Shown: positions 2,017 through 57,009 of the stretch, one piece after another | Layout: each line of letters begins with the position of its first letter | Numbering within the stretch: position 1 is the stretch's first letter | NCBI GenBank assembly: GCA_039029315.1 | Contig: JBCCGK010000023.1 | Location: 56,670 to 120,669, forward strand | Reading direction: 5' to 3' | DNA: 64,000 nucleotides | Origin: Bacteroidota bacterium | GTDB taxonomy: Bacteria > Bacteroidota > Bacteroidia > J057 | Made by a program: the position numbers and the translations under genes | The notes under the pieces: generated by a model | The model's input: the letters and a program-made list of their open reading frames with translations, nothing else | What the model was told of the DNA's origin: nothing | Databases searched by the model: none

Positions 2017-3759
2017 CTAGTATCCGTTGTTCTGTATGATCGCACCCTGGCTAACCACGATCTGAGAGTTAGGAATGGGTTGATACTCATCTCGTCCTAC
2101 AACGAAGTTCGCATCGTTGAGGTATTCTCGTCGGGCTTTCTCAGTAGAGAAATAGGCATTCAGGGTCTCTTCTGCAATTCCCCAACGGACCAGATCAAAG
2201 AATCGACCTGGATGAGATTCCAGCGCGAGTTCCAATCGTCTCTCCCAACGCAGGATTCGTAAGGCATCCTCTTTGGTCGCGAAGTGAGACTCATTGTACA
2301 AGCCAATCATATACTGGCCTGATGAACTACCATCCGCCTTGACAAGTTTGCCAGTACTGTTCATTGCCCGTTCACGGATGCGGTTGATGATCGGCAAGGC
2401 TTCCAGGTGTCGGCCTGTTTCGATCAATGCTTCTGCCCAATAGAGAAGTGCATCAGCATAGCGCATTTGGTCAGTGTTTCGAGCAGTAGTAAAAAATGCG
2501 ACTGTTCCGCGGAAGCAGGGAGATTCAGGGAGTTCCTGATCTTTGAAAGCAGCATTGAAACCATATATGCCAGGCACGCGAGAGTAGGTTTCATCAAAGA
2601 TTCGATCAGGGACATATTTCCAGGGCATTCCCAGTACAGCAATACTATGAGAAAATCGTGGGTCGAGGTTATTGGCCTCCACAGCTGCCACTCCATCAAT
2701 GATAGGATCCCCATCATAGGTATCAAACATTGGCAGGCCATCAACATCTGTCTTAAAGGCATTGGCCAGATTGACAGAAGGAATGTTGAACCAACAGCAT
2801 CCGTATCCAGGTCCCATGGTTGAGTTCAGCGCATTGGAATGGTTCCCTCTTCCTTCTGGTGCACCATCGTCAATAGAGCGCATGACTGCCCAAACTGATT
2901 CGATTCCACTTTCTGTTTCACACAGAAAATTGTCAGCGATGTCAGCATGTAGGTCAAATTCTCCAGAGGCATCCACTTCTGCAATCAGGTTGGCGGCCTC
3001 ATTCAATTCACTTTGAGTAATAGCGGTCACTTGATGGTTGTCATCCTGCACATAGGCTTTGTAGATCAAGGATTTGGCCAGGAAGAGCTTGGCTGCCCCT
3101 TTGGTAGGTCGCCCGATTTCACTCTGTGTAGCTGGCAAGCCTGCCACTGCAGCACGCCATTCATCTATGATCCATTGCCATCCTTCCTGATCGCTCAGCT
3201 CTCGATTGTGTTTCGTGATATAGTCTTTCTTCTCAATGGTCTCATCGAGATAGACGATATGTTTGTAGAGGACTTTCAGTTTGAAATATGTCTGGGCACG
3301 CAAGAAGTTCATCTCAGCAATTCGCTCTCCTCTTGTAGGCAAGTCTGCTTCGTTCGCTGCTTGCAAGCGTCCCATCGCTTCATTGATTCTGGAAACCAAT
3401 ACATACAAATTCAACCACATCAGGCGATTATTTGTGTTACCTGTTGCAGTCTGTAGCGTTTTGACTTCGATTCGGTGGGTATTGAACTGGTCAGGAATAC
3501 TTCCCCCTCCTTTATGCGCATCTCCTGCTCCGACACTTCCATATGTCCACATGTCCTGGAAAGGAGCGAAAAAGTTGTCATTTCCTTGAGCCGCATAAGC
3601 AGCAATGACCAGTTTTTCAATATTCTCCGGGCTATTCAGGTCTTCACTATTGACCACTCCTTTGGGTGTAAAGTCCAGAAATTCCTCTTGACAGCCTGCA
3701 CTAAAGGTCATCGAGATGATCAGGACGACAAGGAATTTGATATATATAAATTTTTTCAT
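2017..3759 (-). CDS. susD: SusD/RagB-family nutrient-binding outer-membrane lipoprotein
   Basis: 580-aa ORF with lipoprotein signal MKKFIYIKFLVVLIISMTFSAGC. C-terminal RYADALLYWAEALIETGR-type SusD helical signature. Sits immediately downstream of a SusC gene with a 30-bp gap. Confidence 0.85.
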   Translation of the reverse strand: MKKFIYIKFLVVLIISMTFSAGCQEEFLDFTPKGVVNSEDLNSPENIEKLVIAAYAAQGNDNFFAPFQDMWTYGSVGAGDAHKGGGSIPDQFNTHRIEVKTLQTATGNTNNRLMWLNLYVLVSRINEAMGRLQAANEADLPTRGERIAEMNFLRAQTYFKLKVLYKHIVYLDETIEKKDYITKHNRELSDQEGWQWIIDEWRAAVAGLPATQSEIGRPTKGAAKLFLAKSLIYKAYVQDDNHQVTAITQSELNEAANLIAEVDASGEFDLHADIADNFLCETESGIESVWAVMRSIDDGAPEGRGNHSNALNSTMGPGYGCCWFNIPSVNLANAFKTDVDGLPMFDTYDGDPIIDGVAAVEANNLDPRFSHSIAVLGMPWKYVPDRIFDETYSRVPGIYGFNAAFKDQELPESPCFRGTVAFFTTARNTDQMRYADALLYWAEALIETGRHLEALPIINRIRERAMNSTGKLVKADGSSSGQYMIGLYNESHFATKEDALRILRWERRLELALESHPGRFFDLVRWGIAEETLNAYFSTEKARREYLNDANFVVGRDEYQPIPNSQIVVSQGAIIQNNGY

Positions 3760-7324: not shown

Positions 7325-8986
7325 TTACCAGATAGACTGAAGTTCATGTACTTCCAGATGGTGAATCACGATCTCAGCCCGTCCACTTATAGACAATCCT
7401 TCTTGATTTTTAGGCTCATTTAGAGGTGCACTAAAATTGAAGCGTCCATGATCCATAAATATTTCAACAGATGTTCTGTCAATCAGGACTTCCAGGTCGA
7501 CGGTTTTGGTTTCGGCCAGATCTGACTCATAGAATACACCATTGAGTTTGTTATAGTTCATGTCATGGGTCAGGATCACATTTCCTTTGTATTTGAGTTG
7601 GAAAGAGGTCCCGTCGAGGGTCTCGACTGTCAGTTTCAGATGAAGAAGCTCTCCTTTGACATCAGCCAACTTCTCATTGGCTTCACCAGTAGTAAGCTTG
7701 CTCCACTGCATGCTGTTGGTATGAAGTTTTTTGAGTTCGCCGATGGGTTCTGAGAACATTCTGACGCCATTGCGTGTAGAGCGGAGGGTGAGTTCGGTAG
7801 GAAAGAGAAACATCTGGGTAAATGGCATCTTGCCTCCATGGTCCATACCCCTTGCCCATCCGATCTGTATGCGTCTTCCATCTTCTTCCGGGATATTGTT
7901 GTACGTCTGAGCAGCATATAGGCTCCCAGCACAGTAGGCATGTTTTCCTGAAGTTGGCTTGAAGGACTTTCCATCAAAATCACCAATCATATAGGTACCA
8001 GAAGCACCATAGATCACCCATTTGGTGTTGTATTTGTTGCCATCTATGGGCAATTCAAACAGTTCTGGGCATTCCCAAAATCCAACCAAATGACTCAGAT
8101 AGGTCCATTCTTTGAGGTTGTCGGAATTGTAAAAGGAATGGCCATCTTTCTCAAAGACCACCATGACCCATTTTTGCGTTCCCTCATGCCAAAAGATTTT
8201 GGGGTCTCGGGTATTTCTGGAGTCCCATTTTGCTTTGCTATCAACCACAGGATTCCCTTCATATTTGGTGAAGGTTCGGCCCTTGTCATTGCTATAGGCG
8301 ATACACTGGGTCTGAATGGCATCCCCTTCTCCCAAATATTTATGTGCAGTATACGCTGCAATGATTGGCGGATTGTCTCCTTCCTGAAATCCTGTTGTAT
8401 TCTTGGCATCAATGGTTGCTGTCCCTGAAAACATGGTCCCTAACTCATCTGGATGCAGGACATCTGTCAGTTCTTTCCAAAACACCAAATCCGTACTTAC
8501 GGCATGTCCCCAGGTCATATTTTCCCAATTGGCTTCATAAGGATTATGCTGGTAAAACAAATGGTATTCTCCCTCATACCAGACCAATCCATTGGGATCA
8601 TTGTTCCAGCCCCGACGAGAGCTGAAATGCACCTGTGGCCGCCCCACTTCCTTGTAGACACTGTCCTCTCCCGCAAATCGATCTGATTGATAGATCTGCT
8701 TCATGCCCTTTACCTTCTCTGGATATCGGATCGTCAGACTGCTTCCTTGAAAGGCCGACATATCCGCAAATACCCAGTAGTCAGGTTCTTCTGTGCTAAG
8801 ACGAATCACGAATGTGCGAATATTGACCCCTCCTATCTCAAATTTCATTTGTTGCCTGTCTTCAGAATGTTGGACAGGAAGATTGAGATACTTTTTCGTG
8901 ATCTTGATGGTTCGTTTGTTTTCCTGAGACCATACAGAAAGCACACATCCTAGGAGCACACACAAGAGCCAGGCTGTTTTTTTCAT
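7325..8986 (-). CDS. Glycoside hydrolase family 32 (beta-fructofuranosidase/levanase-type)
   Basis: Canonical GH32 motifs are present: WNNDPNGL (nucleophile Asp), HAVSTDLVFW, RDPKIFW (RDP) and WECPELF (EC acid/base). The six-frame ORF extends to 9061, but a signal-peptide-like start MKKTAWLLCVLLGCVLSVWSQ at 8986 is more plausible. Confidence 0.85.
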   Translation of the reverse strand: MKKTAWLLCVLLGCVLSVWSQENKRTIKITKKYLNLPVQHSEDRQQMKFEIGGVNIRTFVIRLSTEEPDYWVFADMSAFQGSSLTIRYPEKVKGMKQIYQSDRFAGEDSVYKEVGRPQVHFSSRRGWNNDPNGLVWYEGEYHLFYQHNPYEANWENMTWGHAVSTDLVFWKELTDVLHPDELGTMFSGTATIDAKNTTGFQEGDNPPIIAAYTAHKYLGEGDAIQTQCIAYSNDKGRTFTKYEGNPVVDSKAKWDSRNTRDPKIFWHEGTQKWVMVVFEKDGHSFYNSDNLKEWTYLSHLVGFWECPELFELPIDGNKYNTKWVIYGASGTYMIGDFDGKSFKPTSGKHAYCAGSLYAAQTYNNIPEEDGRRIQIGWARGMDHGGKMPFTQMFLFPTELTLRSTRNGVRMFSEPIGELKKLHTNSMQWSKLTTGEANEKLADVKGELLHLKLTVETLDGTSFQLKYKGNVILTHDMNYNKLNGVFYESDLAETKTVDLEVLIDRTSVEIFMDHGRFNFSAPLNEPKNQEGLSISGRAEIVIHHLEVHELQSIW

Positions 8987-9196
8987 AAATCCAGCAGTTG
9001 AGAAAAACAAATTGACATGCAGGAAACAGAAAACACCTATTCCCATGCTTCCACATGCCAATGCTTAATGAACAAATTAAACTACAACTTAAAGCGGAAG
9101 GTCTTTTGGCTGGATAATTCCAAAGCCAGTCCTTCGAATCTCTAGTAGCAACTTGCAAAAGTCTGCCCAGAATTACGGATGAAAAACAAATCAATT

Positions 9197-16238: not shown

Positions 16239-17372
16239 TTAATCAAGGGAAAGATAGCTTGACATACGTGGCCAGCCATCTTCAATTCTCTGGCAGACCA
16301 CTTCCCACTGTGGCACGCCACTACTTGCATCCGCTTGTTCAACACTGAAGCCCCCTACAGCTGTCGCCATGATCATGACCTCCTCTGGGGACATCCCTTT
16401 GTTCATGGCTGCCAGAAAGCCTGCGATGGTACAATCTCCGGCCCCAGTTGTCCCAGCTACATTCGCTTGAAAACAAGGAGACATTAAACGTTGGTTGGTC
16501 CAGCGGTCGATGTGAGCAGGTCTTCCCTTTCCCATCTGTGACAATCGCTCAGGATCATCCGTAGTTTGCATAAATAATCCCTGATCTCCCAACTTCAATA
16601 CAACTATGCCTGCCCCCATTTCCAGCAGCTCCTGACTGAGAGACAGCAACAATTCTTTGGAAATGATGACTGTCCCTTGTTTGTCCATCTGCTCAAACAA
16701 CGGGCGATCCATCATCAAGAGAATCTCATCATAACTGGGAAGAAAGATATCGACATGCGGAAGTACCGTTTTCATCCATGCTCTCCAGTCAGTCATTCCA
16801 GCCTCAGAACTAACATCTGGATAGGACATATCCAGGGAGGTTGTCAAGCCCACTTGCTTGATTTCTGACAGGAGTTGGGCCAAGCCCTCTCCCCCATCAG
16901 CATAGATCATCTGCATCTCGGATGGATAGCCAAAATGAAAATACCGGGCACCTTCCAAAGTCTCAGGAGAGATATCTGTTGCCCGAAAGGTATCGTTTGC
17001 GCCAGGATTGTACAGAAAACTCCGATCCATTCCAGGAGGACTGATCACAATGGAATAAGAGGTACTGTCCTCTTTCGACACGATCATTTTTTCTGTAAGA
17101 TCTGATCCATGTTTTTGCAGGATGTCCAGGATGGTTTCCCCAAAATGATCTTGTCCGATTTTACCAATAAGGCGGGTCGATATTCCCAATTGATGCAAAG
17201 CCAATCCAGTATTCGCCACAGCTCCACCAGTACTAATAATCGCAGCCCCGACATTGACCGCCTTTCCAGGCCTGACCAATTGACTCAAATCTCCTTTGTA
17301 CCCATCGAAAGGCAGGATGATGTCCAAACAAATCAGTCCAGCGACAACAATATCAGGAGAGGGATCAGTCAT
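16239..17372 (-). CDS. PfkB-family (ribokinase-like) carbohydrate kinase
   Basis: 377 aa with N-terminal GG-containing sugar-binding region (VVAGLICLDII). C-terminal PfkB signature 2 TTGAGDCTIAGFLAAM. There is a 6-bp gap to the upstream gene and a 26-bp gap to the downstream aldolase. Confidence 0.8.
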   Translation of the reverse strand: MTDPSPDIVVAGLICLDIILPFDGYKGDLSQLVRPGKAVNVGAAIISTGGAVANTGLALHQLGISTRLIGKIGQDHFGETILDILQKHGSDLTEKMIVSKEDSTSYSIVISPPGMDRSFLYNPGANDTFRATDISPETLEGARYFHFGYPSEMQMIYADGGEGLAQLLSEIKQVGLTTSLDMSYPDVSSEAGMTDWRAWMKTVLPHVDIFLPSYDEILLMMDRPLFEQMDKQGTVIISKELLLSLSQELLEMGAGIVVLKLGDQGLFMQTTDDPERLSQMGKGRPAHIDRWTNQRLMSPCFQANVAGTTGAGDCTIAGFLAAMNKGMSPEEVMIMATAVGGFSVEQADASSGVPQWEVVCQRIEDGWPRMSSYLSLD

Positions 17373-26092: not shown

Positions 26093-27679
26093 TCAGTATA
26101 CGTTGGTTCTGGCCATTTGCCAAACTCTGGCATGTGATATCTTGATTGATTTTGATCCAGTGAACAGTTTTACCTGATTGCTCTCTCTCAATTCTGGATA
26201 GACCACTTGGGTCATACACTGTCTTCCATTGGCGAATACCTCAATGATTGACTGATCTATAAAGATATTCAGCTTAAGGGATTCGCCTTTTTTGAGTTCG
26301 AATGGTGCGCGTTGCTCAGAAACGGGTTCTGTAAATCCTTCCAATTGAGGCTCGCCCATACAGTTGGAGCGAAAGGTCTGGCTTCCTTTTGCACTGATGG
26401 AGGAGTTGGAAAAATCGATCACGAGTTCTTTCGATCCAGGATCGTAGCGAATGATTGTTTCTTCACGGCCATCAGGGGAGCAAAATACTTTGACACCATA
26501 GGTATCTTTGATCGTTCCGTCCAATTCTACCTCTATCTCGAGTGCTGTCCCATCTAGATCCATCAGGTGCTCTGTATCGGGAGAAAGCACAAGATCTGTC
26601 TCCTCGGTCCCAGCCAGACGGAGCTGTTTGAATTCTTCTGGAGGCTGAATCCGCAACACACCATCCGAAGGCAGGCTCAAGGCTCTGGGCATGCTCATGA
26701 TGCCAGACCATCCAAAGTCTTCGAGGTGATCGGGCTTGCGTTCCAGTACCCATCCCCAAATGAGGTTCCGTCCCGAATCATCGACCATCTGTTCCGGGGC
26801 AAAGAAGGTCCCACCCGGCCAATTCATTCGATGATGCTGTTCGATGGTGTATTGTCCGTTTTTGAAGGTCCCGATGTAGTATTGTGTTCCCAGATTATGG
26901 CTGATAAAGAGCAGCATCTGTTTGTCACCAATGTTGAAGAAGTCGGGGCAGGATAGGTCTTCAAAATCGAGTCGTTTTCGGTCATCTTGCGGAATCAGAT
27001 CCCCCAAATATTCCCACTCCATCATGTCTTTGGATCGAAAAAAGCCTGCAATTTTCCCTCCTGAAATCTGGTAGTAGTGATCGGTTTCCTTGTCATACCA
27101 GCCCTCAGGGTCCCAGGCTCGATATTTTTCATACATAGGGTCTCCTTTCTCCGGGCTTCTCAGCACAGGATTTCCTTCAAATTTTTTCCATTCCCTCAAA
27201 TCTGCATCTGTCGAATATGCTACCAGGTTGGTGGCAGATCCTTGCCCATGATACATGATATGCGGAATCCCCTCTCTGGACAGAAACGCTCCTCCACTGA
27301 AAATGCCTTTCTCTATGTCTCCATCCTTCACATCCAGCATATCCGGATACAACTGCCAATGCAACAAATCTGTGCTGACAGCATGTCCCCAGTAGTGTTC
27401 TCGAAATCCCTTGTGATAAGCTTGGTAAATGAAGCCAAGATGATATTTGCCATTCCAGTATATTCCGCCATTGGGGTCGAAAGGATAGGCCATTCCTTCT
27501 GGCGCTACAAAATGATAGATCGGACGATGCGGGTCAGACATGATTCGCTGCCGAAGCTTGCGGGATTGCATCACCTTGTCGAGTTCATTGGTCGTGGTCT
27601 TCTGCCCCATCAGTTCGGGACCATGCAGAGCCAAACAGGCTGTAAGCGTCAACAAAGAGAGTAGTCGTAGTAGTAGCAT
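26093..27679 (-). CDS. Divergent GH32-family (clan GH-J) glycoside hydrolase, secreted
   Basis: Signal peptide MLLLRLLSLLTLTACLALHG. FDPNGG plus KYHLGF (nucleophile block), HAVSTDLLHW, RAWDPEGWY (RDP-like) and EDLSCPDFF (EC block). Confidence 0.7.
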   Translation of the reverse strand: MLLLRLLSLLTLTACLALHGPELMGQKTTTNELDKVMQSRKLRQRIMSDPHRPIYHFVAPEGMAYPFDPNGGIYWNGKYHLGFIYQAYHKGFREHYWGHAVSTDLLHWQLYPDMLDVKDGDIEKGIFSGGAFLSREGIPHIMYHGQGSATNLVAYSTDADLREWKKFEGNPVLRSPEKGDPMYEKYRAWDPEGWYDKETDHYYQISGGKIAGFFRSKDMMEWEYLGDLIPQDDRKRLDFEDLSCPDFFNIGDKQMLLFISHNLGTQYYIGTFKNGQYTIEQHHRMNWPGGTFFAPEQMVDDSGRNLIWGWVLERKPDHLEDFGWSGIMSMPRALSLPSDGVLRIQPPEEFKQLRLAGTEETDLVLSPDTEHLMDLDGTALEIEVELDGTIKDTYGVKVFCSPDGREETIIRYDPGSKELVIDFSNSSISAKGSQTFRSNCMGEPQLEGFTEPVSEQRAPFELKKGESLKLNIFIDQSIIEVFANGRQCMTQVVYPELRESNQVKLFTGSKSIKISHARVWQMARTNVY

Positions 27680-31480: not shown

Positions 31481-32992
31481 CTACCGCTGATACCCTAGCT
31501 CCTGTTCTCTTTTGAGCCAAATAGACTCAAGCCGATACACTTCCAGATAAGACAATTTGGCCTTTCCTCCTTCAACAAAAAGGGCCAGATCCTTGTTCGA
31601 TGGATCGGGATAAAACAATTTTGTGAAGGTAACTTCTCCTTGATTGGCATATACTTCTACTGAATTTCTGTCAAGAATACATCTCAACTGAATATGACCA
31701 TCCATAGGTGAGAGGGTCGCCTCCGATCCCATAAAGGTCAATCGTTGAGTTTCCTTCGAATAGCTCAAGCGTTCTCCACGTAGAACCAAGCCCACTTCTT
31801 CTGCTGTTTGGAGGTCAATGTCTACCAATATTTCGAAGACATCTCCATCTACGTCTTCCAGTGGATTGTCAGCTGGACTCACCTCAAGGTCCTGCCAGAG
31901 GTGGGAGTCACTTCTCAATTGCTTGATCGCATGTATCGGCATACGGCAGAGACGAGGAAGTCCGTTGATGGTTTTCAGGCTGAGTTCTACGGGAAAAATC
32001 TGTTGCTGGCTCCATGTTCGATCATGGGTAGGGGCCTCGGTCAGATGCATAAATCCCATCTGGTAAAAAGGAGCATCTCCTTCATAGGAATGCGCCCATG
32101 CCTGAGTGGCATATAATTCCCGATCTGAGCCGCGCCAATTCTCCCTCTCGACTCCATGATTGACCTTGGTGTTCGGCATGTCAGAGTGAAAGTGTGTTCC
32201 ATCGAAGTCCCCGATCCGATAGGTTCCATCTCCATTGATGATGACCCATTTTTTGTTATTCTCATCGCCATCCAACGGCATTTCCAAAAAATCAGGACAT
32301 TCATAAAAGCCCTCAAGCTTACTCAATACCTTCCAATCGAGCAGGTTGTCGGATTTGTAGAATGTAAATCCCGGAGGCTCATACAAAATCAGCCGCCAGG
32401 ACTGATCAGGTTTGTACCAGAAAACCTTGGCATCACGATCTGCTTTCCCCTCCGGCATGGGGATGACGGGATTATCCTTGTGCCGAATCCAGGTTTTGCC
32501 AGCATCCCGACTAAAAGAAATGGAGGTTCCCCTTCCATAATCTGTATAAAAGACGACAAGTGTTTTTTCTACCCCCGATTGCAATCCAAGTGTATTGTTC
32601 CAATCTACAATCCCACTCCCACTACCTGGTGCATGATCCAATCTGGTATTCATGATCTGAGGCAGTTGTCCCCAAAAGACCAAATCATTGCTGATGGCAT
32701 GTCCCCAGCTTTTGTTATACCGACGTGATTTGGACCACTCATCATACATGTAAAACAAATGGTAGGTCCCCTTGTATAGGATCAATCCAGTCGCATCAGC
32801 AATCTGGCCAGTGATAGGGGTATAATGCACCTGTGGCCGAAGTGGCTGATTGTAGTGCATGTTGTCGAACACTGCGTCATAGCTGAGGCCGTATGGATCA
32901 TCCGGGATTTTTTTTTCTTTGGTCTGACTTATTCCCAAGGAACAGATAATCAGAAAAAGAAGCAGGAGTGTAGGAAATTTCATCATCAACAT
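31481..32992 (-). CDS. Third, highly divergent GH32-like (clan GH-J) glycoside hydrolase
   Basis: Signal peptide. The nucleophile block is degenerate (QIADATGLILYKGTYHLFY) but retains the Asp. WGHAISNDLVFW, RDAKVFWY (RDP block) and FYECPDFLEMP (EC block) are present. Confidence 0.6.
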   Translation of the reverse strand: MLMMKFPTLLLLFLIICSLGISQTKEKKIPDDPYGLSYDAVFDNMHYNQPLRPQVHYTPITGQIADATGLILYKGTYHLFYMYDEWSKSRRYNKSWGHAISNDLVFWGQLPQIMNTRLDHAPGSGSGIVDWNNTLGLQSGVEKTLVVFYTDYGRGTSISFSRDAGKTWIRHKDNPVIPMPEGKADRDAKVFWYKPDQSWRLILYEPPGFTFYKSDNLLDWKVLSKLEGFYECPDFLEMPLDGDENNKKWVIINGDGTYRIGDFDGTHFHSDMPNTKVNHGVERENWRGSDRELYATQAWAHSYEGDAPFYQMGFMHLTEAPTHDRTWSQQQIFPVELSLKTINGLPRLCRMPIHAIKQLRSDSHLWQDLEVSPADNPLEDVDGDVFEILVDIDLQTAEEVGLVLRGERLSYSKETQRLTFMGSEATLSPMDGHIQLRCILDRNSVEVYANQGEVTFTKLFYPDPSNKDLALFVEGGKAKLSYLEVYRLESIWLKREQELGYQR

Positions 32993-33144: not shown

Positions 33145-34305
33145 TTAGCCTTTTAGGACAGCAAGCGGAGTTAGTTCTACCACGATTTCTGCCAGGTCTT
33201 TCTGGTTTTCCATCACGACATCGATGTCCTTGTAAGCACTGGTCGCTTCATCCAGATCTTTCTGGTTTCGCAATCCGTGGATCACGCCTCTCTGGTTCAT
33301 TAGATCGATCTCATGCTGCAAATCCAATTCTCGCTGGGCCTGCTTTCGTCCCATCTTTCGCCCAGCTCCATGGGAGCAAGACATGAAGCTCTGCTCATTC
33401 CCCAATCCGCGAACAATGTAAGAGTGGGTTCCCTGAGATCCTGGGATCATCCCCAATTCATCTTTGAAAGCTTTGGTTGCCCCTTTTCGGTGGACGAAGA
33501 CATTTTCCCCGAAATGATGCTCCCATGCGGCAAAGTTATGGGCTTTGTTAATGATGTCCTCTCGCTCGAATTCTCCTACAACTTCGGTCAAAGCCTCACT
33601 CATACGTTCCATCATCAACTTCCGGTTCGCCAAGGCAAATTCAATACAATAGTTCATTTCATCGATATAGGCTTGAGATTCTTCAATCTCCAATGGCAAG
33701 AATGCCAGTCCCATCTCTTTGGTTACGGTAGAATGATATCGTGCATTCAGCTTAATGGCCAATTCGTTGTAAAACTTGGCTACAGTATATCCAAGATTTC
33801 GGCTCCCTGAGTGAATCATGATCCAGATGTAGCCATCAGAACCTTTTTGAATCTCAATGAAGTGATTCCCTCCCCCCAATGTTCCGATTTGTTTCAAGGC
33901 TTTGTTGTACCCGCGGCTAACATTCATTAAGGCAGCATGTCCTTCTGGCATCCTTGCCTCATCTTGCTTCTCCGCATGCCAGTTGAATCCCAATGGGATC
34001 AAGGATCGGGCTACGCCCATCACTTTCTTCAACTCTTCTCGGGACACGTCTTGCAGTTCGGTCCGCATCGCACACATTCCACATCCGATGTCTACTCCGA
34101 CAGCATTGGGGATGACTACATTTTTGGTAGCTAATACAGAGCCGATTGGCATTCCATATCCTTGATGGCTATCAGGCATGATGGCGATATGCTTGAAGGC
34201 AAATGGCAAGTTCGCAAGGTTTTTGGCCTGCTTCAAAGCCCCAGGCTCAATGTCTTCCAACCACATTTTGATTGGTCGCTTTTCTGTTGATATGACTTGT
34301 TTCAT
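33145..34305 (-). CDS. rtcB: RtcB-family RNA ligase
   Basis: 386 aa with metal-binding blocks MPDSHQGYGMPIGS, GVDIGCGM and NHAG..SGSRN-like segments typical of RtcB (short form). Confidence 0.75.
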   Translation of the reverse strand: MKQVISTEKRPIKMWLEDIEPGALKQAKNLANLPFAFKHIAIMPDSHQGYGMPIGSVLATKNVVIPNAVGVDIGCGMCAMRTELQDVSREELKKVMGVARSLIPLGFNWHAEKQDEARMPEGHAALMNVSRGYNKALKQIGTLGGGNHFIEIQKGSDGYIWIMIHSGSRNLGYTVAKFYNELAIKLNARYHSTVTKEMGLAFLPLEIEESQAYIDEMNYCIEFALANRKLMMERMSEALTEVVGEFEREDIINKAHNFAAWEHHFGENVFVHRKGATKAFKDELGMIPGSQGTHSYIVRGLGNEQSFMSCSHGAGRKMGRKQAQRELDLQHEIDLMNQRGVIHGLRNQKDLDEATSAYKDIDVVMENQKDLAEIVVELTPLAVLKG

Positions 34306-34398: not shown

Positions 34399-35523
34399 TT
34401 ACTTAGAAAAGATCTCCTTCAACTGATCCACAATCTGACCTCCGCCTGACAGGGAGATGCTGCTGATCTTTTCGGCAATTTTCTCTACATATTCCATCTC
34501 CTTGAGTTTGAAGAGCATGGCGTTTTCTTCCATGAGCTTGGCTGTATTGAGCAGACTTCTTGTAGAAGCGGTCTCTTCTCGTCTGGTGATGATATTGGCC
34601 TGGGCGTTTTTCTGTGCAATCAGTACCCGACTCATGATTTCCTTCACATCTCCCGGCAGGATGATGTCCCGAATCCCGCATGTCTTGATTGCGACGCCCA
34701 GTTCTTCGGCCTTGTCAGCGAGTGCCTTGAGCATAAAAGGAGAAATATCTTCCTTTTTTTCCAATAGTTCATCCAATGTCAAGGTTCCGATAAACTCCCT
34801 CAACGCCAACTGAATGGAGGTATAGAGAGATCGTTCATACACCTTGTTGTCTACCAGTGCTCTTTTCAGATCCACAATCTGATAGATGGTCTGGAAGTTG
34901 ATTCTCAAGGCTGCCTTGTCTTTGGTCAGAATTTCCTGTCCGGGGACTTCCAGTTGCTGCTGTCGCATGTCAGCTTTCAGCACAATGATGGCTTCGGCAT
35001 TCTTCCAGAATCTGTAGATCCCGGCACCGATTTCCCGCTCAAATATGCCATCCCGGAAGAACAGCCCCCTTTCATAGGATTCAATGACAAATGTTCTGAC
35101 AAAAGGAGAAAGCGTAGGCTTCACCAACAGGTTGACATCAATGTTGTCTGAAATTTCAGATACACTCAGGTCTATCTTCACGAAGGAGAAAACCGTTACT
35201 CCCTTCCAAAATGCGTGTTTTCCTGGTCTGAGAACGGCTTTGAAGTTGCCATCCTCATACTGTAGGGCGATCTCATTGTCAGTCACTTCGACCACATAGA
35301 GTTGTTCACTCAAGATGGGGTCTCTCAACAATAGACTCAATGGGAATCTGCTGTTCAGTGGCTGTGTCATGTCATGTCGCTCAATTTGCTCATGGAACCC
35401 CAACCAATAACTTCCTTCAGTAAGGGTTCTTCTGTAGCTCCCAAATCTGGAGACAAGAGCGACTTGACCGGTTGCGATTCTTACTCTGTTCATGACGTTG
35501 ATATAATTGATGGTTGTTGACAA
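34399..35523 (-). CDS. SPFH/band-7 (slipin-like) domain protein with ~170-aa N-terminal extension
   Basis: The C-terminal half has band-7 features (GIRDIILPGDVKEIMSRVLIAQKNAQANIITRRE). It lies 93 bp upstream of rtcB on the same strand. Confidence 0.6.
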   Translation of the reverse strand: MSTTINYINVMNRVRIATGQVALVSRFGSYRRTLTEGSYWLGFHEQIERHDMTQPLNSRFPLSLLLRDPILSEQLYVVEVTDNEIALQYEDGNFKAVLRPGKHAFWKGVTVFSFVKIDLSVSEISDNIDVNLLVKPTLSPFVRTFVIESYERGLFFRDGIFEREIGAGIYRFWKNAEAIIVLKADMRQQQLEVPGQEILTKDKAALRINFQTIYQIVDLKRALVDNKVYERSLYTSIQLALREFIGTLTLDELLEKKEDISPFMLKALADKAEELGVAIKTCGIRDIILPGDVKEIMSRVLIAQKNAQANIITRREETASTRSLLNTAKLMEENAMLFKLKEMEYVEKIAEKISSISLSGGGQIVDQLKEIFSK

Positions 35524-35810
35524 AAAAGAAGAAAACAGACCCGCCAGGGCATTTCGGAGAAAGCGGAACTCTCGTTGAGCAGAAATCTATTAACATCGTT
35601 TCCGATCAGGGGCCTTCGTCATGCAAGATCATAGACGATCTTAGATGCTCTGGCTGCCGAAGCAGAAAGGATCCCAACTCTTTCAGCGGTATCCTGAGTG
35701 TTCAGGGCCTTCCAGAAACTGTCTTTCTACACCGGGTAGTCAGACGGCCCCTTTGGGTGCTGTTTCCTTGTAGGTGGAATTTTTATAGAAGTTTCCACTC
35801 TTCTTGCATA

Positions 35811-35892
35811 CAGCTGGATTAAAAGTCCAGTGCTCTACCAATTGAGCTACTATTCACGTGAGAATAGACGGGAATCGAACCCGCAACACCTG
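35811..35892 (-). ncRNA. tRNA-Lys(UUU)-like element with circularly permuted arm order (candidate tRNA-like ncRNA or tRNA remnant)
   Basis: On the minus strand the order is T-arm (GCGGG-TTCGATT-CCCGT), then acceptor 3-prime strand CTATTCT, discriminator C and a short linker. Next come acceptor 5-prime strand (T)GAATAG (6 of 7 bases complementary), TA, and D-arm GCTC-AATTGGTA-GAGC. Last is a complete anticodon arm CTGGA-CTTTTAA-TCCAG with anticodon TTT. No T-arm follows the anticodon arm. Confidence 0.45.
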
Positions 35893-36175
35893 AGTTGTTG
35901 GCAACAAACGATCAGATAAGCGGCATATGCGTCCTTTGCAGGTTGCACACCATGGAGCCATACAGAAACTCTCATCAGGTCTTTGGCTGTCCGTTTGCTA
36001 CAATACAAATATGAGGAGGCACTGCGCAATCTATTTGCGTAGATAAAAAAAAGTGGCGATTTTTATGAAAATTTTTGGAAAAGGCGGTTTTTGGGCCAAA
36101 AGAGGAGGTTTTTTTTCGTTCCTTGAATCGCACAATACTCGCCTCACTTTTCAAAGAGAGTCAAACCCTTATTCT

Positions 36176-37897
36176 ATGCCAGTCAACAGAAACGCTCTCA
36201 TTCGCTACAAGACCATCGACAAGTGCTTGCAGAACAGGTACAGAAGATGGACCCTGAATGATCTCATTGAGGCTTGCTCTGATGCGCTATACGAATACGA
36301 AGGCATCACAAAAGGCGTAAGTCGGCGATCTGTGCAGGCCGATATCCAAATGATGCGGAGTGATAAGCTTGGTTACAATGCGCCCATCATTGTGGTGGAT
36401 CGAAAATATTATACATATGAAGATCCCACCTACAGTATCACCAATATTCCCTTGACAGATCAGGATTTGGGCATGTTGACCGAGGCGGTGGAATTCATGA
36501 AGCAGTTTCAAGGCTTCTCTCACTTTCGTGGGCTGGACGGTATGGTGCAGAAACTGGAAGACCACATCTATTCCCAGAAAACCCAAAACAAACCAGCCAT
36601 TGATTTTGAAAAAAATGACAACCTCAAGGGACTCGAACATCTGGATCGACTTTATCAGGCCATTATCCAAAAAAGAGCGATCCACATCACTTATCAATCA
36701 TTTAAGGCCCGAGTCGAAAGTACCTTTGATTTCCATCCTTATTTGTTGAAGGAATACCGGAATCGCTGGTTCATTCTTGGGGTAAAGAAAAAAGGAAGCA
36801 ATTTGCTCAATTTGGCTTTGGATCGGATTGTGCGAATCGAAGACACAGAGACCTGGTATCAGGGCGATTCGGGCTTCAATGCAGCGGAATATTTCAAGGA
36901 TGCCATCGGCGTTTCTGTCAGTCCCGGTGTTCATGCAGAAGAAGTAGTGCTGTTTGCCACTCACAAACATGCTCCCTATATTATCACCAAACCTCTCCAC
37001 CACTCGCAACAATTGCTGGAAAAAGATGCTTATGGGATTACCTTCTCTCTGTATGTCCAGCACAATTTTGAGCTGGAAAAAGAGATTCTGGCTTTTGGCG
37101 AAGGGGTTCGGGTGATTTCGCCTGAGCGCCTGAAAAGAAGAATCAAGGATCGAATGGAGGCCGCTGTGGAAAATTATCAAACGGACCTGCGAAGCAGGGG
37201 GCTGGACATTGCCGCAAACAAGCTTCAACACAAAGGGTCCAGCATCCTGAATTATGTCTATACCAGCAGAGAGGTCCGACATATCCGACGCATGCTGGAC
37301 AAAGTTCTGAATAACGGAGGAAAACGCCCACATGCCGAACGGCGGTTGCTTCAGCTTATTCCGAGTTTGAAAACGGTCTTATTCAACAAAAATCTTCGAC
37401 GTATTCTTCATAATATTGATGAACAAGCTTTTTTGACCAAGGCGATCTATTTTGACAAAACCCCTGACGCCAACTGGTTTGTGAATTGGCATCAGGATAT
37501 CCCAATCAATGTCGCAGAGAAAAAAGAAGTGGCTGGCTATAGCAAGTGGACGGCAAAAGATGGCGTCATCAGTGTCTGTCCTCCTGAGCAGATTTGTCAG
37601 AATCGTTTTAGTATTCGCATTCATCTGGATGATGCTGATGCCCAGAACGGTGCCCTCCGAATCTTAGCTGGTTCTCACAAAAAGATCTTTGATGATGATG
37701 AAATTCGCCTGATTGCAGAAAACAGTCTTCCAGTCTTGTGCGAAGTTCCTTCTGGGGGGATTCATTTGATGAAGCCCCTGATCCTGCATGCGTCGTCCAA
37801 GAGTCAGACGCAGAAGCGAAGGCGGGTGATTCATTTGGAATTTGCCTCTGTAGAATTGGAAGGAGAGTTGGAATGGGGGGAGAGGGCGGGGTGGTAA
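36176..37897 (+). CDS. HTH plus WYL-domain regulator fused to a PhyH-type Fe(II)/2-oxoglutarate dioxygenase domain
   Basis: N-terminal DeoR/YafY-like HTH (RWTLNDLIEACSDAL...GVSRRSVQADIQMMR). WYL-like core (FDFHPYLLKEYRNRWFILGV...LALDRIVRIED). C-terminal PhyH signature (WFVNWHQD for the HxD motif, NGALRILAGSHKK, distal VIHLEF). The ORF track starts at 36053; the start at 36176 is preferred. Confidence 0.65.
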   Translation: MPVNRNALIRYKTIDKCLQNRYRRWTLNDLIEACSDALYEYEGITKGVSRRSVQADIQMMRSDKLGYNAPIIVVDRKYYTYEDPTYSITNIPLTDQDLGMLTEAVEFMKQFQGFSHFRGLDGMVQKLEDHIYSQKTQNKPAIDFEKNDNLKGLEHLDRLYQAIIQKRAIHITYQSFKARVESTFDFHPYLLKEYRNRWFILGVKKKGSNLLNLALDRIVRIEDTETWYQGDSGFNAAEYFKDAIGVSVSPGVHAEEVVLFATHKHAPYIITKPLHHSQQLLEKDAYGITFSLYVQHNFELEKEILAFGEGVRVISPERLKRRIKDRMEAAVENYQTDLRSRGLDIAANKLQHKGSSILNYVYTSREVRHIRRMLDKVLNNGGKRPHAERRLLQLIPSLKTVLFNKNLRRILHNIDEQAFLTKAIYFDKTPDANWFVNWHQDIPINVAEKKEVAGYSKWTAKDGVISVCPPEQICQNRFSIRIHLDDADAQNGALRILAGSHKKIFDDDEIRLIAENSLPVLCEVPSGGIHLMKPLILHASSKSQTQKRRRVIHLEFASVELEGELEWGERAGW

Positions 37898-56556: not shown

Positions 56557-57009
56557 CTATCCCCATCGCTGAATCTCAATCAAATTCCCATCGGGATCTT
56601 TCACATAAGCAAAAGTCAATGCTCCCTTGCCTGCCACACTCGTCTCAATGATCTCTCCATATGCAGTCCCTCCATGTGCAACAACCTGCGCACAAACGGC
56701 TCGCACATCCTCCACTTCGAAGGCAATATGCCGAAATCCCACACGATTGGACAGGGAAGATGGAGCTTGTAAATTGTCTGCGTATTGATAGACTTCCAAA
56801 GTCGGTCCATGCTCCCCATAACCCGGCAAGCGAAGATGAACCCCACGAAGATGCGCATTGGGAACACCCGTTCCTCTTTCCAACCAGTCCCCGGATTGAT
56901 CTCTTTCTGGTGGAACGACCTCGCAAGCAAATACTTGTACATAGAAGTCAGCAAGCCGTTGCCAGTCCTGTGTGATGATGTTGGTATGGACGAATTTCAT
57001 AACAATCAA
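56557..57009 (-). CDS. VOC-family (glyoxalase/bleomycin-resistance-like) protein
   Basis: 150 aa. The HIAFEVED block and paired beta-alpha-beta-beta-beta modules are typical of glyoxalase I-like proteins. Confidence 0.7.
   Translation of the reverse strand: MIVMKFVHTNIITQDWQRLADFYVQVFACEVVPPERDQSGDWLERGTGVPNAHLRGVHLRLPGYGEHGPTLEVYQYADNLQAPSSLSNRVGFRHIAFEVEDVRAVCAQVVAHGGTAYGEIIETSVAGKGALTFAYVKDPDGNLIEIQRWG

Follow-up and report, generated by a model that had tools for sequence, protein, structure and literature searches.

A conserved, circularly permuted tRNA-like element with a closed acceptor stem in the leader of an SPFH-RtcB gene pair of Bacteroidota

What is the tRNA-like sequence that precedes a gene pair for an SPFH/Band-7 protein and the RNA ligase RtcB in a Bacteroidota bacterium (assembly GCA_039029315.1, contig JBCCGK010000023.1)? 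The sequence lies in a stretch of 64,000 nucleotides (contig positions 56,670 to 120,669), which we call the window and to which the coordinates below refer. The original prediction for this site was a circularly permuted transfer RNA (tRNA) mimic of the YrlA type, with a closed acceptor stem and a Lys(UUU) anticodon, next to an SPFH-RtcB pair without Ro60; a tRNA-Lys remnant at an old integration site was held to be the alternative. The first of these descriptions is supported by the match of the arms to YrlA, by a rotation test and by a scan for TROVE proteins. From sequence comparison we are confident that the element, a tRNA mimic with a closed acceptor, is conserved and under selection and that it belongs to the SPFH-RtcB module.

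Read along the minus strand, the module consists, from 5' to 3', of a variable loop, a T-arm, a loop-closed acceptor stem, a D-arm and an anticodon arm (Table 1). All the arms that had been predicted are present on this strand and at the expected place, and their description was exact base for base. As also predicted, no T-arm follows the anticodon arm, and the acceptor halves, described as complementary at 6 of 7 positions, form six pairs and a U-U mismatch, closed by a loop of 4-6 nt. The chain enters and leaves the module at positions 43/44, between the anticodon stem and the variable loop. The set of tRNA core nucleotides is complete (U8, A14, A15 with U48, G18 and G19, G46, and T54, Psi55 and C56 with A58), and all four hairpins of the module occur in both the minimum-free-energy (MFE) and the centroid folds. 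ARAGORN detected no collinear tRNA in the entire 64-kb window. When the module was rotated by placing the variable loop, T-arm and acceptor 3' strand after the anticodon arm, the same program called it a 73-nt tRNA-Lys(ttt). Because the rotated sequence is recognized in this way, the permuted reading is correct and can be quantified, and the view that this is not a normal tRNA-Lys gene is borne out.

An ordinary collinear tRNA gene whose arms were misread would give a match to tRNA covariance models, and such a match exists. At gathering thresholds, the only Rfam family found was tRNA: its match at 35781-35856 reached 33.6 bits, the gathering score being 29. However, the alignment has no T-arm: 17 nt remain unaligned at its site, and the true acceptor 5' strand is paired with an unrelated downstream strand, borrowed from a pseudoknot described below, which gives an acceptor with four non-standard pairs. 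With no call by ARAGORN either, the match is an artefact, produced by the genuine 5' half, and not a collinear gene. The predicted arm order stands after this covariance search, and a misread ordinary gene is highly improbable.

In a sensitive local Rfam scan, the best family was YrlA (RF02553), with 45 bits (E 1.1e-8; gathering score 69). The T-arm, acceptor hairpin and D-arm aligned to this family at high posterior probability, and the outer Ro60-binding stems aligned poorly and with gaps. No YrlA match at the gathering threshold of 69 bits was found in the window or in the 16 related loci tested. A covariance model (R1) that we built from the tRNA-like units described in the next paragraph gave 65.5 bits for the window element (E 5.7e-17, E-values being rough), and this was its sole match in the 64-kb window.

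Relatives were collected by an alignment-based scan for SPFH, using one genome per species, which returned 80 loci. With a simple pattern (T-loop, hairpin, D-arm), units were found on the strand of the SPFH gene, 300-650 nt before it, frequently two in tandem. Counted from the best 150 matches to R1, 74 loci from distinct Bacteroidota species have at least one unit within the 1 kb before SPFH; 28 of these loci have a single unit, 42 have two and 4 have three. Weaker R1 matches were junctions between adjoining canonical tRNAs. The synteny comparison that had been suggested for rtcB neighbourhoods in Bacteroidota thus shows the arrangement recurring in 74 species. The arrangement, which had been called atypical, is the rule in this phylum, and the class had been predicted in 2016, as far as it is cited in 10.1101/312249. 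Modules also persist where no RtcB gene follows within 4 kb, so it is SPFH, and not RtcB alone, with which they are linked.

Covariation was analyzed in 34 units aligned with MAFFT, without fitting a structure. Pairing was retained in 93% of the cells, 13 of the 18 pairs had changed on both sides, and the covariation score was 0.635, compared to 0.21 in shuffles and at most 0.20 with slid partners. Compensatory changes were present in all five pairs of the acceptor stem (94.7% of cells paired), three of five T-stem pairs covaried (100% of cells paired), and all four pairs of the closing helix that is found in many units were altered on both sides. The T-loop block GGTTCRAnTCC was invariant, as were, or nearly so, TAGCTYA and AGCA in the D-arm region. 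At shorter range, the window can be compared with L081, the closest relative, of which the SPFH protein is 95% identical and which has one unit, as in the window. Whereas the intergenic region is 85% identical overall, the differences in the module comprise five of the six acceptor-loop bases (ATTAGC vs TCACGT in the window) and none of the 74 other bases. This comparison indicates short-range purifying selection on the module.

These data decide against the alternative that the element is a functionless, decayed or rearranged tRNA-Lys at a former integration site. It is true that a tRNA 3' part stands right before a 5' part, and that the breaks are near the anticodon stem, a frequent integrase site. 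However, order, spacing and strand are the same in 74 species and every stem has compensatory changes; the substitutions in L081 are limited to one loop; the adjoining WYL gene is not cargo but a conserved partner; no integrase or repeat was seen; and SPFH identities of 52-63% across families exclude a single recently transferred island. With the architecture shared at 74 loci, the compensatory changes and the L081 comparison, a remnant is ruled out for practical purposes.

The units are not all alike. Typically, a covarying 4-bp helix at the position of the anticodon stem closes the first unit of a locus, and this unit has no anticodon loop; this class (type A), with 63 units, has a YrlA-like design. 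Later units mostly lack the closing helix, and in 40 of them the D-arm is directly followed by a 5-bp stem with a 7-nt loop. Among 36 such anticodon-like loops, Y32 is present in 34, U33 in 35 and R37 in 34, and any base can occupy positions 34-36. The commonest loop is CUUUUAA (10 of the 36). Many types of base pairs occur in the anticodon-like stem, of which only the diversity counts because the sequences were pre-selected for perfect pairing. The triplets observed were UUU, GUU, AUU, GAU, CAU, GAA, CAG, ACG and GUG. After rotation, 26 of 27 modules were called tRNA by ARAGORN, with anticodons for Lys, Asn, Arg, His, Leu, Phe, Met or Ile, and D-arms are almost identical among modules with different anticodons. 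Lys identity belongs to the window locus and not to the family; the predicted Lys(UUU) was right for this locus, but the triplet differs among species and is no family trait.

The window and locus L034 contain single-unit hybrids, in which a closing-like TCAG/CTGG pairing (4 bp) shares bases with the anticodon stem on its 5' strand. Because the 5' closing strand (TCAG) is deleted in L081, the form with the anticodon arm is the conserved one. A different situation was observed in a Flavobacteriaceae locus (L065:3431-3501), where ARAGORN called a collinear tRNA-Asn(gtt) in the leader, right after the first unit, at the place where others have a permuted unit.

How does the element relate to known tRNA-like RNAs? 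YrlA was defined beside Ro60 genes (Chen et al. 2014, PMC4201824). Its tRNA-like domain was solved by Wang et al. 2018 (bioRxiv 10.1101/312249); YrlA carries modifications made by TruB and DusA and mimics tRNA in the crystal, and its discoverers described it as resembling a circularly permuted tRNA (PMC4201824; 10.1101/312249). The window element has the same order of T-arm, loop-closed acceptor and D-arm, the same elbow and core nucleotides, and a place in an RNA-repair operon with RtcB, and the first modules of related loci are closed by a short helix at the anticodon-stem position exactly as YrlA is. On the other hand, its 45 bits are below the gathering score of 69, it has its own complete anticodon arm, and relatives carry tandem modules in a 500-nt leader upstream of SPFH. 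YrlA is also recognized by a Ro60 gene on the same strand within about 4 kb. As predicted for this locus, no Rsr/Ro60 (TROVE) gene was found among the 24 window open reading frames (ORFs) of 330-630 amino acids that were scanned (one ORF of 438 amino acids and all those of at least 900 fell outside the scan).

YrlA occasionally adjoins Band-7 genes (10.1101/312249). Moreover, a Band-7-associated tRNA-like RNA (b7a-tRNA) beside RtcB was predicted by Burroughs & Aravind 2016, who, as cited in 10.1101/312249, proposed Band-7 together with such an RNA to be RtcB cofactors, the RNA being the partner of the Band-7 scaffold. Like the b7a-tRNA of that citation, the window module adjoins Band-7/SPFH and RtcB; it lies 320 nt upstream, and the adjacency holds in 74 loci. 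Whereas b7a-tRNA is said there to resemble an authentic collinear tRNA, the window element is permuted and tRNA-like only when rotated. Because three YrlA tests fail (gathering score, Ro60-binding module and Ro60 neighbour) and b7a-tRNA is collinear, we assign the element to neither, and it is best described as a variant akin to both. Several relatives also carry, between promoter and units, a non-canonical tRNA-Tyr(GUA)-like gene (L001:3277-3362, L003, L007, L013, L014, L016, L019, L029, L039, L045, L079 and L080). In two loci (L006:3887-3971 and L011:3887-3971) it is present instead of units, 30 nt before SPFH. This gene mostly has C8 for U8 and a 5-bp D stem, and CCA is encoded in none of the copies; three copies scored 36-52 bits with the Rfam tRNA model, and those of L006 and L011 were below threshold. 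It is probably the b7a-tRNA. A search for such a gene in the window found none.

The module is one domain of a structured leader of about 500 nt, in which operator/promoter, 5' hairpin, tRNA mimic, H-type pseudoknot and 3' domain follow each other. At least 36 related loci have CTRCGCA-N7-TGCGYAG, then about 9 nt, then CAnnTTTG, at 450-1250 nt upstream of SPFH. The palindrome is probably an operator that overlaps a Bacteroidota-type promoter, from which transcription would start near 36000. A sigma-70 scan found no promoter; a Bacteroidota -7 box fits instead. The 5' hairpin has compensatory changes in eight sequences (alignment A2 with RNAalifold). In the 3' domain, RNAalifold columns 426-450 pair with 625-647, with many two-sided changes. 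Just upstream of the SPFH start, this domain contains invariant GGATACCG-like and TTCCG blocks.

The pseudoknot motif was matched at 50 loci, a few of the matches being weak or off-target. Its P1 is included in the RNAalifold consensus, and P2, although its sequence varies by locus, has a mean helix length of 4.78 compared to 3.46 after shuffling (maximum 3.8 in 200 shuffles). With its short P1, A-rich linker and 3' tail pairing with the P1 loop, the structure resembles a preQ1-I riboswitch, but its P2 is longer (4-7 bp) and the motif is about 280 nt from the start codon. No Rfam family matched the pseudoknot at E<=10, PreQ1 had no match at this level anywhere in 35400-36200, and a preQ1 riboswitch was rejected on this ground.

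No terminator was found between module and SPFH in the window, and the candidates in 12 of 77 loci are weak and non-homologous. An independent small RNA ended by a terminator was rejected, since the window lacks one and the relatives do not share a conserved one. Because no terminator precedes SPFH, the RNA would be co-transcribed with the SPFH-RtcB genes, and we infer that transcription of the leader continues into both.

What could a tRNA mimic do in such a leader? We favour the explanation that it is the functional cognate RNA partner of the SPFH/Band-7 protein in the RtcB repair module, to which we give an even chance. The leader RNA of about 500 nt would start near 36000 at the operator-controlled promoter and run, unterminated, into SPFH and RtcB. 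Its tRNA-Lys-like cloverleaf with loop-closed acceptor would adopt the L-shape of tRNA in the cell, as expected because the elbow and core nucleotides are intact, and proteins that read this shape would treat it as tRNA. Since it has no free CCA end, the mimic would be neither chargeable nor usable in translation. Either inside the leader or released from it, it could be bound by SPFH or RtcB and serve in repair as a tRNA-shaped cofactor or scaffold, so that SPFH with the mimic would correspond in Bacteroidota to Ro60 with YrlA.

Several observations weigh against this explanation. The element lacks the Ro60-binding part to which YrlA owes its known mechanism, a stem of the 5' and 3' ends with the conserved GNCGAAN0-1G close to the 5' end (PMC4201824): the only GNCGAAG (35620-35614) is 200 nt downstream of the module and is lost in L081. 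The Band-7-associated RNA is, in the account of 10.1101/312249, a prediction without validation. The pseudoknot is partly degraded in L081. Furthermore, the fixed place before SPFH, the conserved pseudoknot and the 3' domain would suit a cis-acting leader equally well, and a role purely as a scaffold would not account for the free variation of the anticodon triplet.

A second explanation we consider possible but less likely than the cofactor role. The leader mimic could be a cis-acting damage sensor or bait that offers a genuine anticodon loop to tRNA-cutting nucleases. Cleavage would yield a nicked tRNA with a 2',3'-cyclic phosphate and a 5'-OH and would sever the upstream RNA from the SPFH-RtcB message; the cut would alter stability or translation of the message, or produce a ligand for the WYL regulator, and RtcB would reseal the nick and reset the switch. 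The loop signature (Y32, U33, R37) is kept while the triplet varies freely on the same stem, as a bait would require, although the variation could equally mean three unconstrained bases. The module is always placed in the 5' leader in the orientation of the genes, no terminator stands between it and SPFH, and more conserved leader structures adjoin the start codon. An engineered permuted tRNA with its acceptor closed by a tetraloop becomes a substrate of RtcB once its anticodon loop is nicked, and in this nicked form it binds the repair-operon regulator RtcR better than a tRNA half does (Wolin laboratory, PMC10159003), and in our loci a WYL regulator and a conserved operator stand where RtcR would be. 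That molecule is a laboratory construct used with RtcR/CARF, whereas the window element is natural, has an intact anticodon loop and adjoins a WYL regulator. Against a bait stand the 63 first modules of type A, which are entirely without anticodon loop, and the lack of a linked nuclease gene. More doubtful still is the specific proposal that nicking of such leader mimics by anticodon nucleases and resealing by RtcB set repair-gene expression, the triplet tracking the nucleases of each lineage. The cofactor and bait roles are not mutually exclusive.

In the extreme form of the bait explanation, RtcB would circularize the module and so produce a spare tRNA. A related explanation, which we regard as a long shot and very unlikely, is that the module is the precursor of a real tRNA. 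Excision would leave a 5'-OH at the variable loop and a cyclic phosphate behind the anticodon stem, and RtcB would join these ends into a circle. RNase P, RNase Z and the CCA-adding enzyme would next open the circle in the acceptor loop, as they do for red-algal permuted tRNAs, giving a spare tRNA-Lys that is made only when RtcB is expressed. RtcB-type ligases are the natural enzymes for circularizing permuted tRNA precursors; here RtcB is encoded in the same operon, and all but one of the 27 rotated modules were called tRNA by ARAGORN. However, no splicing endonuclease is known in bacteria, which counts against this route. No bulge-helix-bulge is evident at 43/44, although no dedicated motif search was run, and the module flanks form no extended anticodon stem. 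The near-identity of D-arms despite different anticodons means that identity elements do not follow the anticodon, and triplets such as AUU are unusual in bacterial tRNAs. In the permuted tRNA genes of Cyanidioschyzon, other algae and Thermofilum, which yield real tRNAs via a splicing endonuclease acting at a bulge-helix-bulge (Soma 2007; review PMC3978253), the 3' half likewise precedes the 5' half, the two are joined via the acceptor ends, and rotation restores the cloverleaf. The window element differs in its break point at 43/44 and in the variation of the anticodon among orthologous loci. Processing of YrlA toward tRNA has been raised as a possibility (10.1101/312249), and Mycobacterium smegmatis YrlA is cut by RNase P in the acceptor loop and gains CCA in vivo (PMC4201824). 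By the criterion given in the latter study, however, an acceptor of six pairs plus U-U with a loop of 4-6 nt would be a poor RNase P substrate.

These loci form a second well-defined tRNA-like repair-operon system beside YrlA, the sole studied case, which works via Ro60. The Bacteroidota system is distinctive in having no Ro60, an SPFH protein as the proposed partner, a complete tRNA mimic with variable anticodon, a conserved operator and a WYL-oxygenase regulator. It bears on what RtcB repairs in bacteria and on the role of tRNA-like RNAs in repair operons. Since carriers include the cultivable genera Chryseolinea, Pedobacter, Aquimarina and Fulvivirga, the cofactor and sensor hypotheses are directly testable. 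The permuted module also accounts for the weak chimeric tRNA matches to be expected from annotation pipelines in such intergenic regions.

Table 1. Features of the tRNA-like module, its leader and the adjoining genes (window coordinates; minus-strand sequences are written 5' to 3').
Feature	Position	Strand	Basis or remark
tRNA-like domain, circularly permuted, closed acceptor	35814..35893	minus	sequence, YrlA and R1 scores, rotation test
Closing-like TCAG	5' start of the 35893-35814 domain, before the variable loop	minus	sequence
Variable-loop-like GTGTT	35889-35885	minus	sequence
T-arm GCGGG/TTCGATT/CCCGT	35884-35868	minus	sequence and covariation
Acceptor hairpin CTATTC, loop TCACGT, GAATAG	35867-35850	minus	sequence and covariation
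Acceptor 3' strand CTATTC(T)	35867-35861	minus	CTATTC itself 35867-35862
Acceptor 5' strand GAATAG	35855-35850	minus	sequence
TA (U8, A9)	35849-35848	minus	directly before D-arm
D-arm GCTC/AATTGGTA/GAGC	35847-35832	minus	matches D-arm of YrlA and tRNA models
A26	between D-arm and anticodon arm	minus	sequence
Anticodon-like arm CTGGA/CTTTTAA/TCCAG, loop CUUUUAA	35830-35814	minus	sequence and relatives
Palindromic operator (putative) CTACGCA-N7-TGCGCAG	36042-36022	minus	conserved in relatives
Bacteroidota-type -7 box CATATTTG	36013-36006	minus	conserved CAnnTTTG; putative promoter role
5' hairpin GTGTGC...GCATAT	35925..35950	minus	flanks CCAT-GT and ATGC-G invariant
H-type pseudoknot	35774..35804	minus	P1 AGAAG/CTTCT, A-rich linker ATAAAAA, P2 GTGGAA (loop) with TTCCAC (tail)
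Leader 3' domain	35550..35721	minus	long-range closing helix; RNAalifold, MFE and centroid folds
SPFH/Band-7 (slipin) gene, 364 amino acids	34399..35494	minus	Pfam Band_7 E 1.1e-29; ATG 35494 set by L081 alignment
RtcB RNA ligase gene	33145..34305	minus	Pfam RtcB E 1.3e-106
WYL-WCX-PhyH regulator gene, 573 amino acids, ATG 36176	36176..37897	plus	Pfam WYL, WCX, PhyH; divergent

The genes around the module encode SPFH, RtcB, GH32 and WYL proteins. The Pfam matches in Table 1 agree with the predicted order of SPFH and then rtcB on the same strand. The predicted distance of about 290 bp to SPFH holds when counted from an upstream TTG; from the true ATG it is about 320 nt. SPFH homologues are about 60% identical throughout Bacteroidota, comparison with solved structures identifies the protein as stomatin-like, and RtcB is the next gene after SPFH in most related loci. 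In the AlphaFold model of SPFH (mean predicted local distance difference test score 77), two extra beta-meander repeats (residues 12-51 and 75-118) precede the stomatin-like core; there is a long C-terminal helix and no obvious transmembrane segment. The model gave no clue to RNA binding.

The WYL gene was expected at this place, but as part of a toxin-antitoxin islet. The supposed toxin-antitoxin pair is without evidence: the antisense ORFs 36287-36697 and 36698-37333 are inside the WYL gene and have no Pfam match, and the islet was rejected. In L081 and in Chryseolinea serpens (L082), too, SPFH has this WYL-WCX-PhyH fusion as its divergent neighbour, and homologous WYL DNA is present upstream, in divergent orientation, at about 25 loci. 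This conservation indicates that the WYL gene is a divergent partner of the operon. The PhyH part of the regulator is a 2-oxoglutarate/Fe oxygenase-like domain.

Other tRNA-related features were observed in the wider surroundings of related loci. Same-strand arrays of 8-18 tRNA genes, most of them ahead of the SPFH-RtcB promoter and 0.5-3.5 kb upstream, occur at L037, L038, L050, L051, L055, L056, L060, L064, L065, L067, L069, L070 and L072; the window has none. Lys tRNAs from the arrays and other related loci mostly start with T or A, not G. A scan of viral contigs for the module pattern mostly detected packed phage tRNA arrays, and also three plausible modules. These YrlA-like units on IMG/VR contigs are L123:8909-8976 and L135:12625-12692, with a clear 4-bp closing helix, and L114:1127-1189, with one of about 3 bp. 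No SPFH homologue was found on the fetched stretches of these three contigs.

Elsewhere in the window, the genes at 7325-9061, 26093-27679, 31481-32992, 2017-3759 and 16239-17372 encode three GH32 proteins, a SusD-like protein and a PfkB kinase. This set indicates a fructan-utilisation region around the repair operon, and several proteins have type IX secretion sorting domains.

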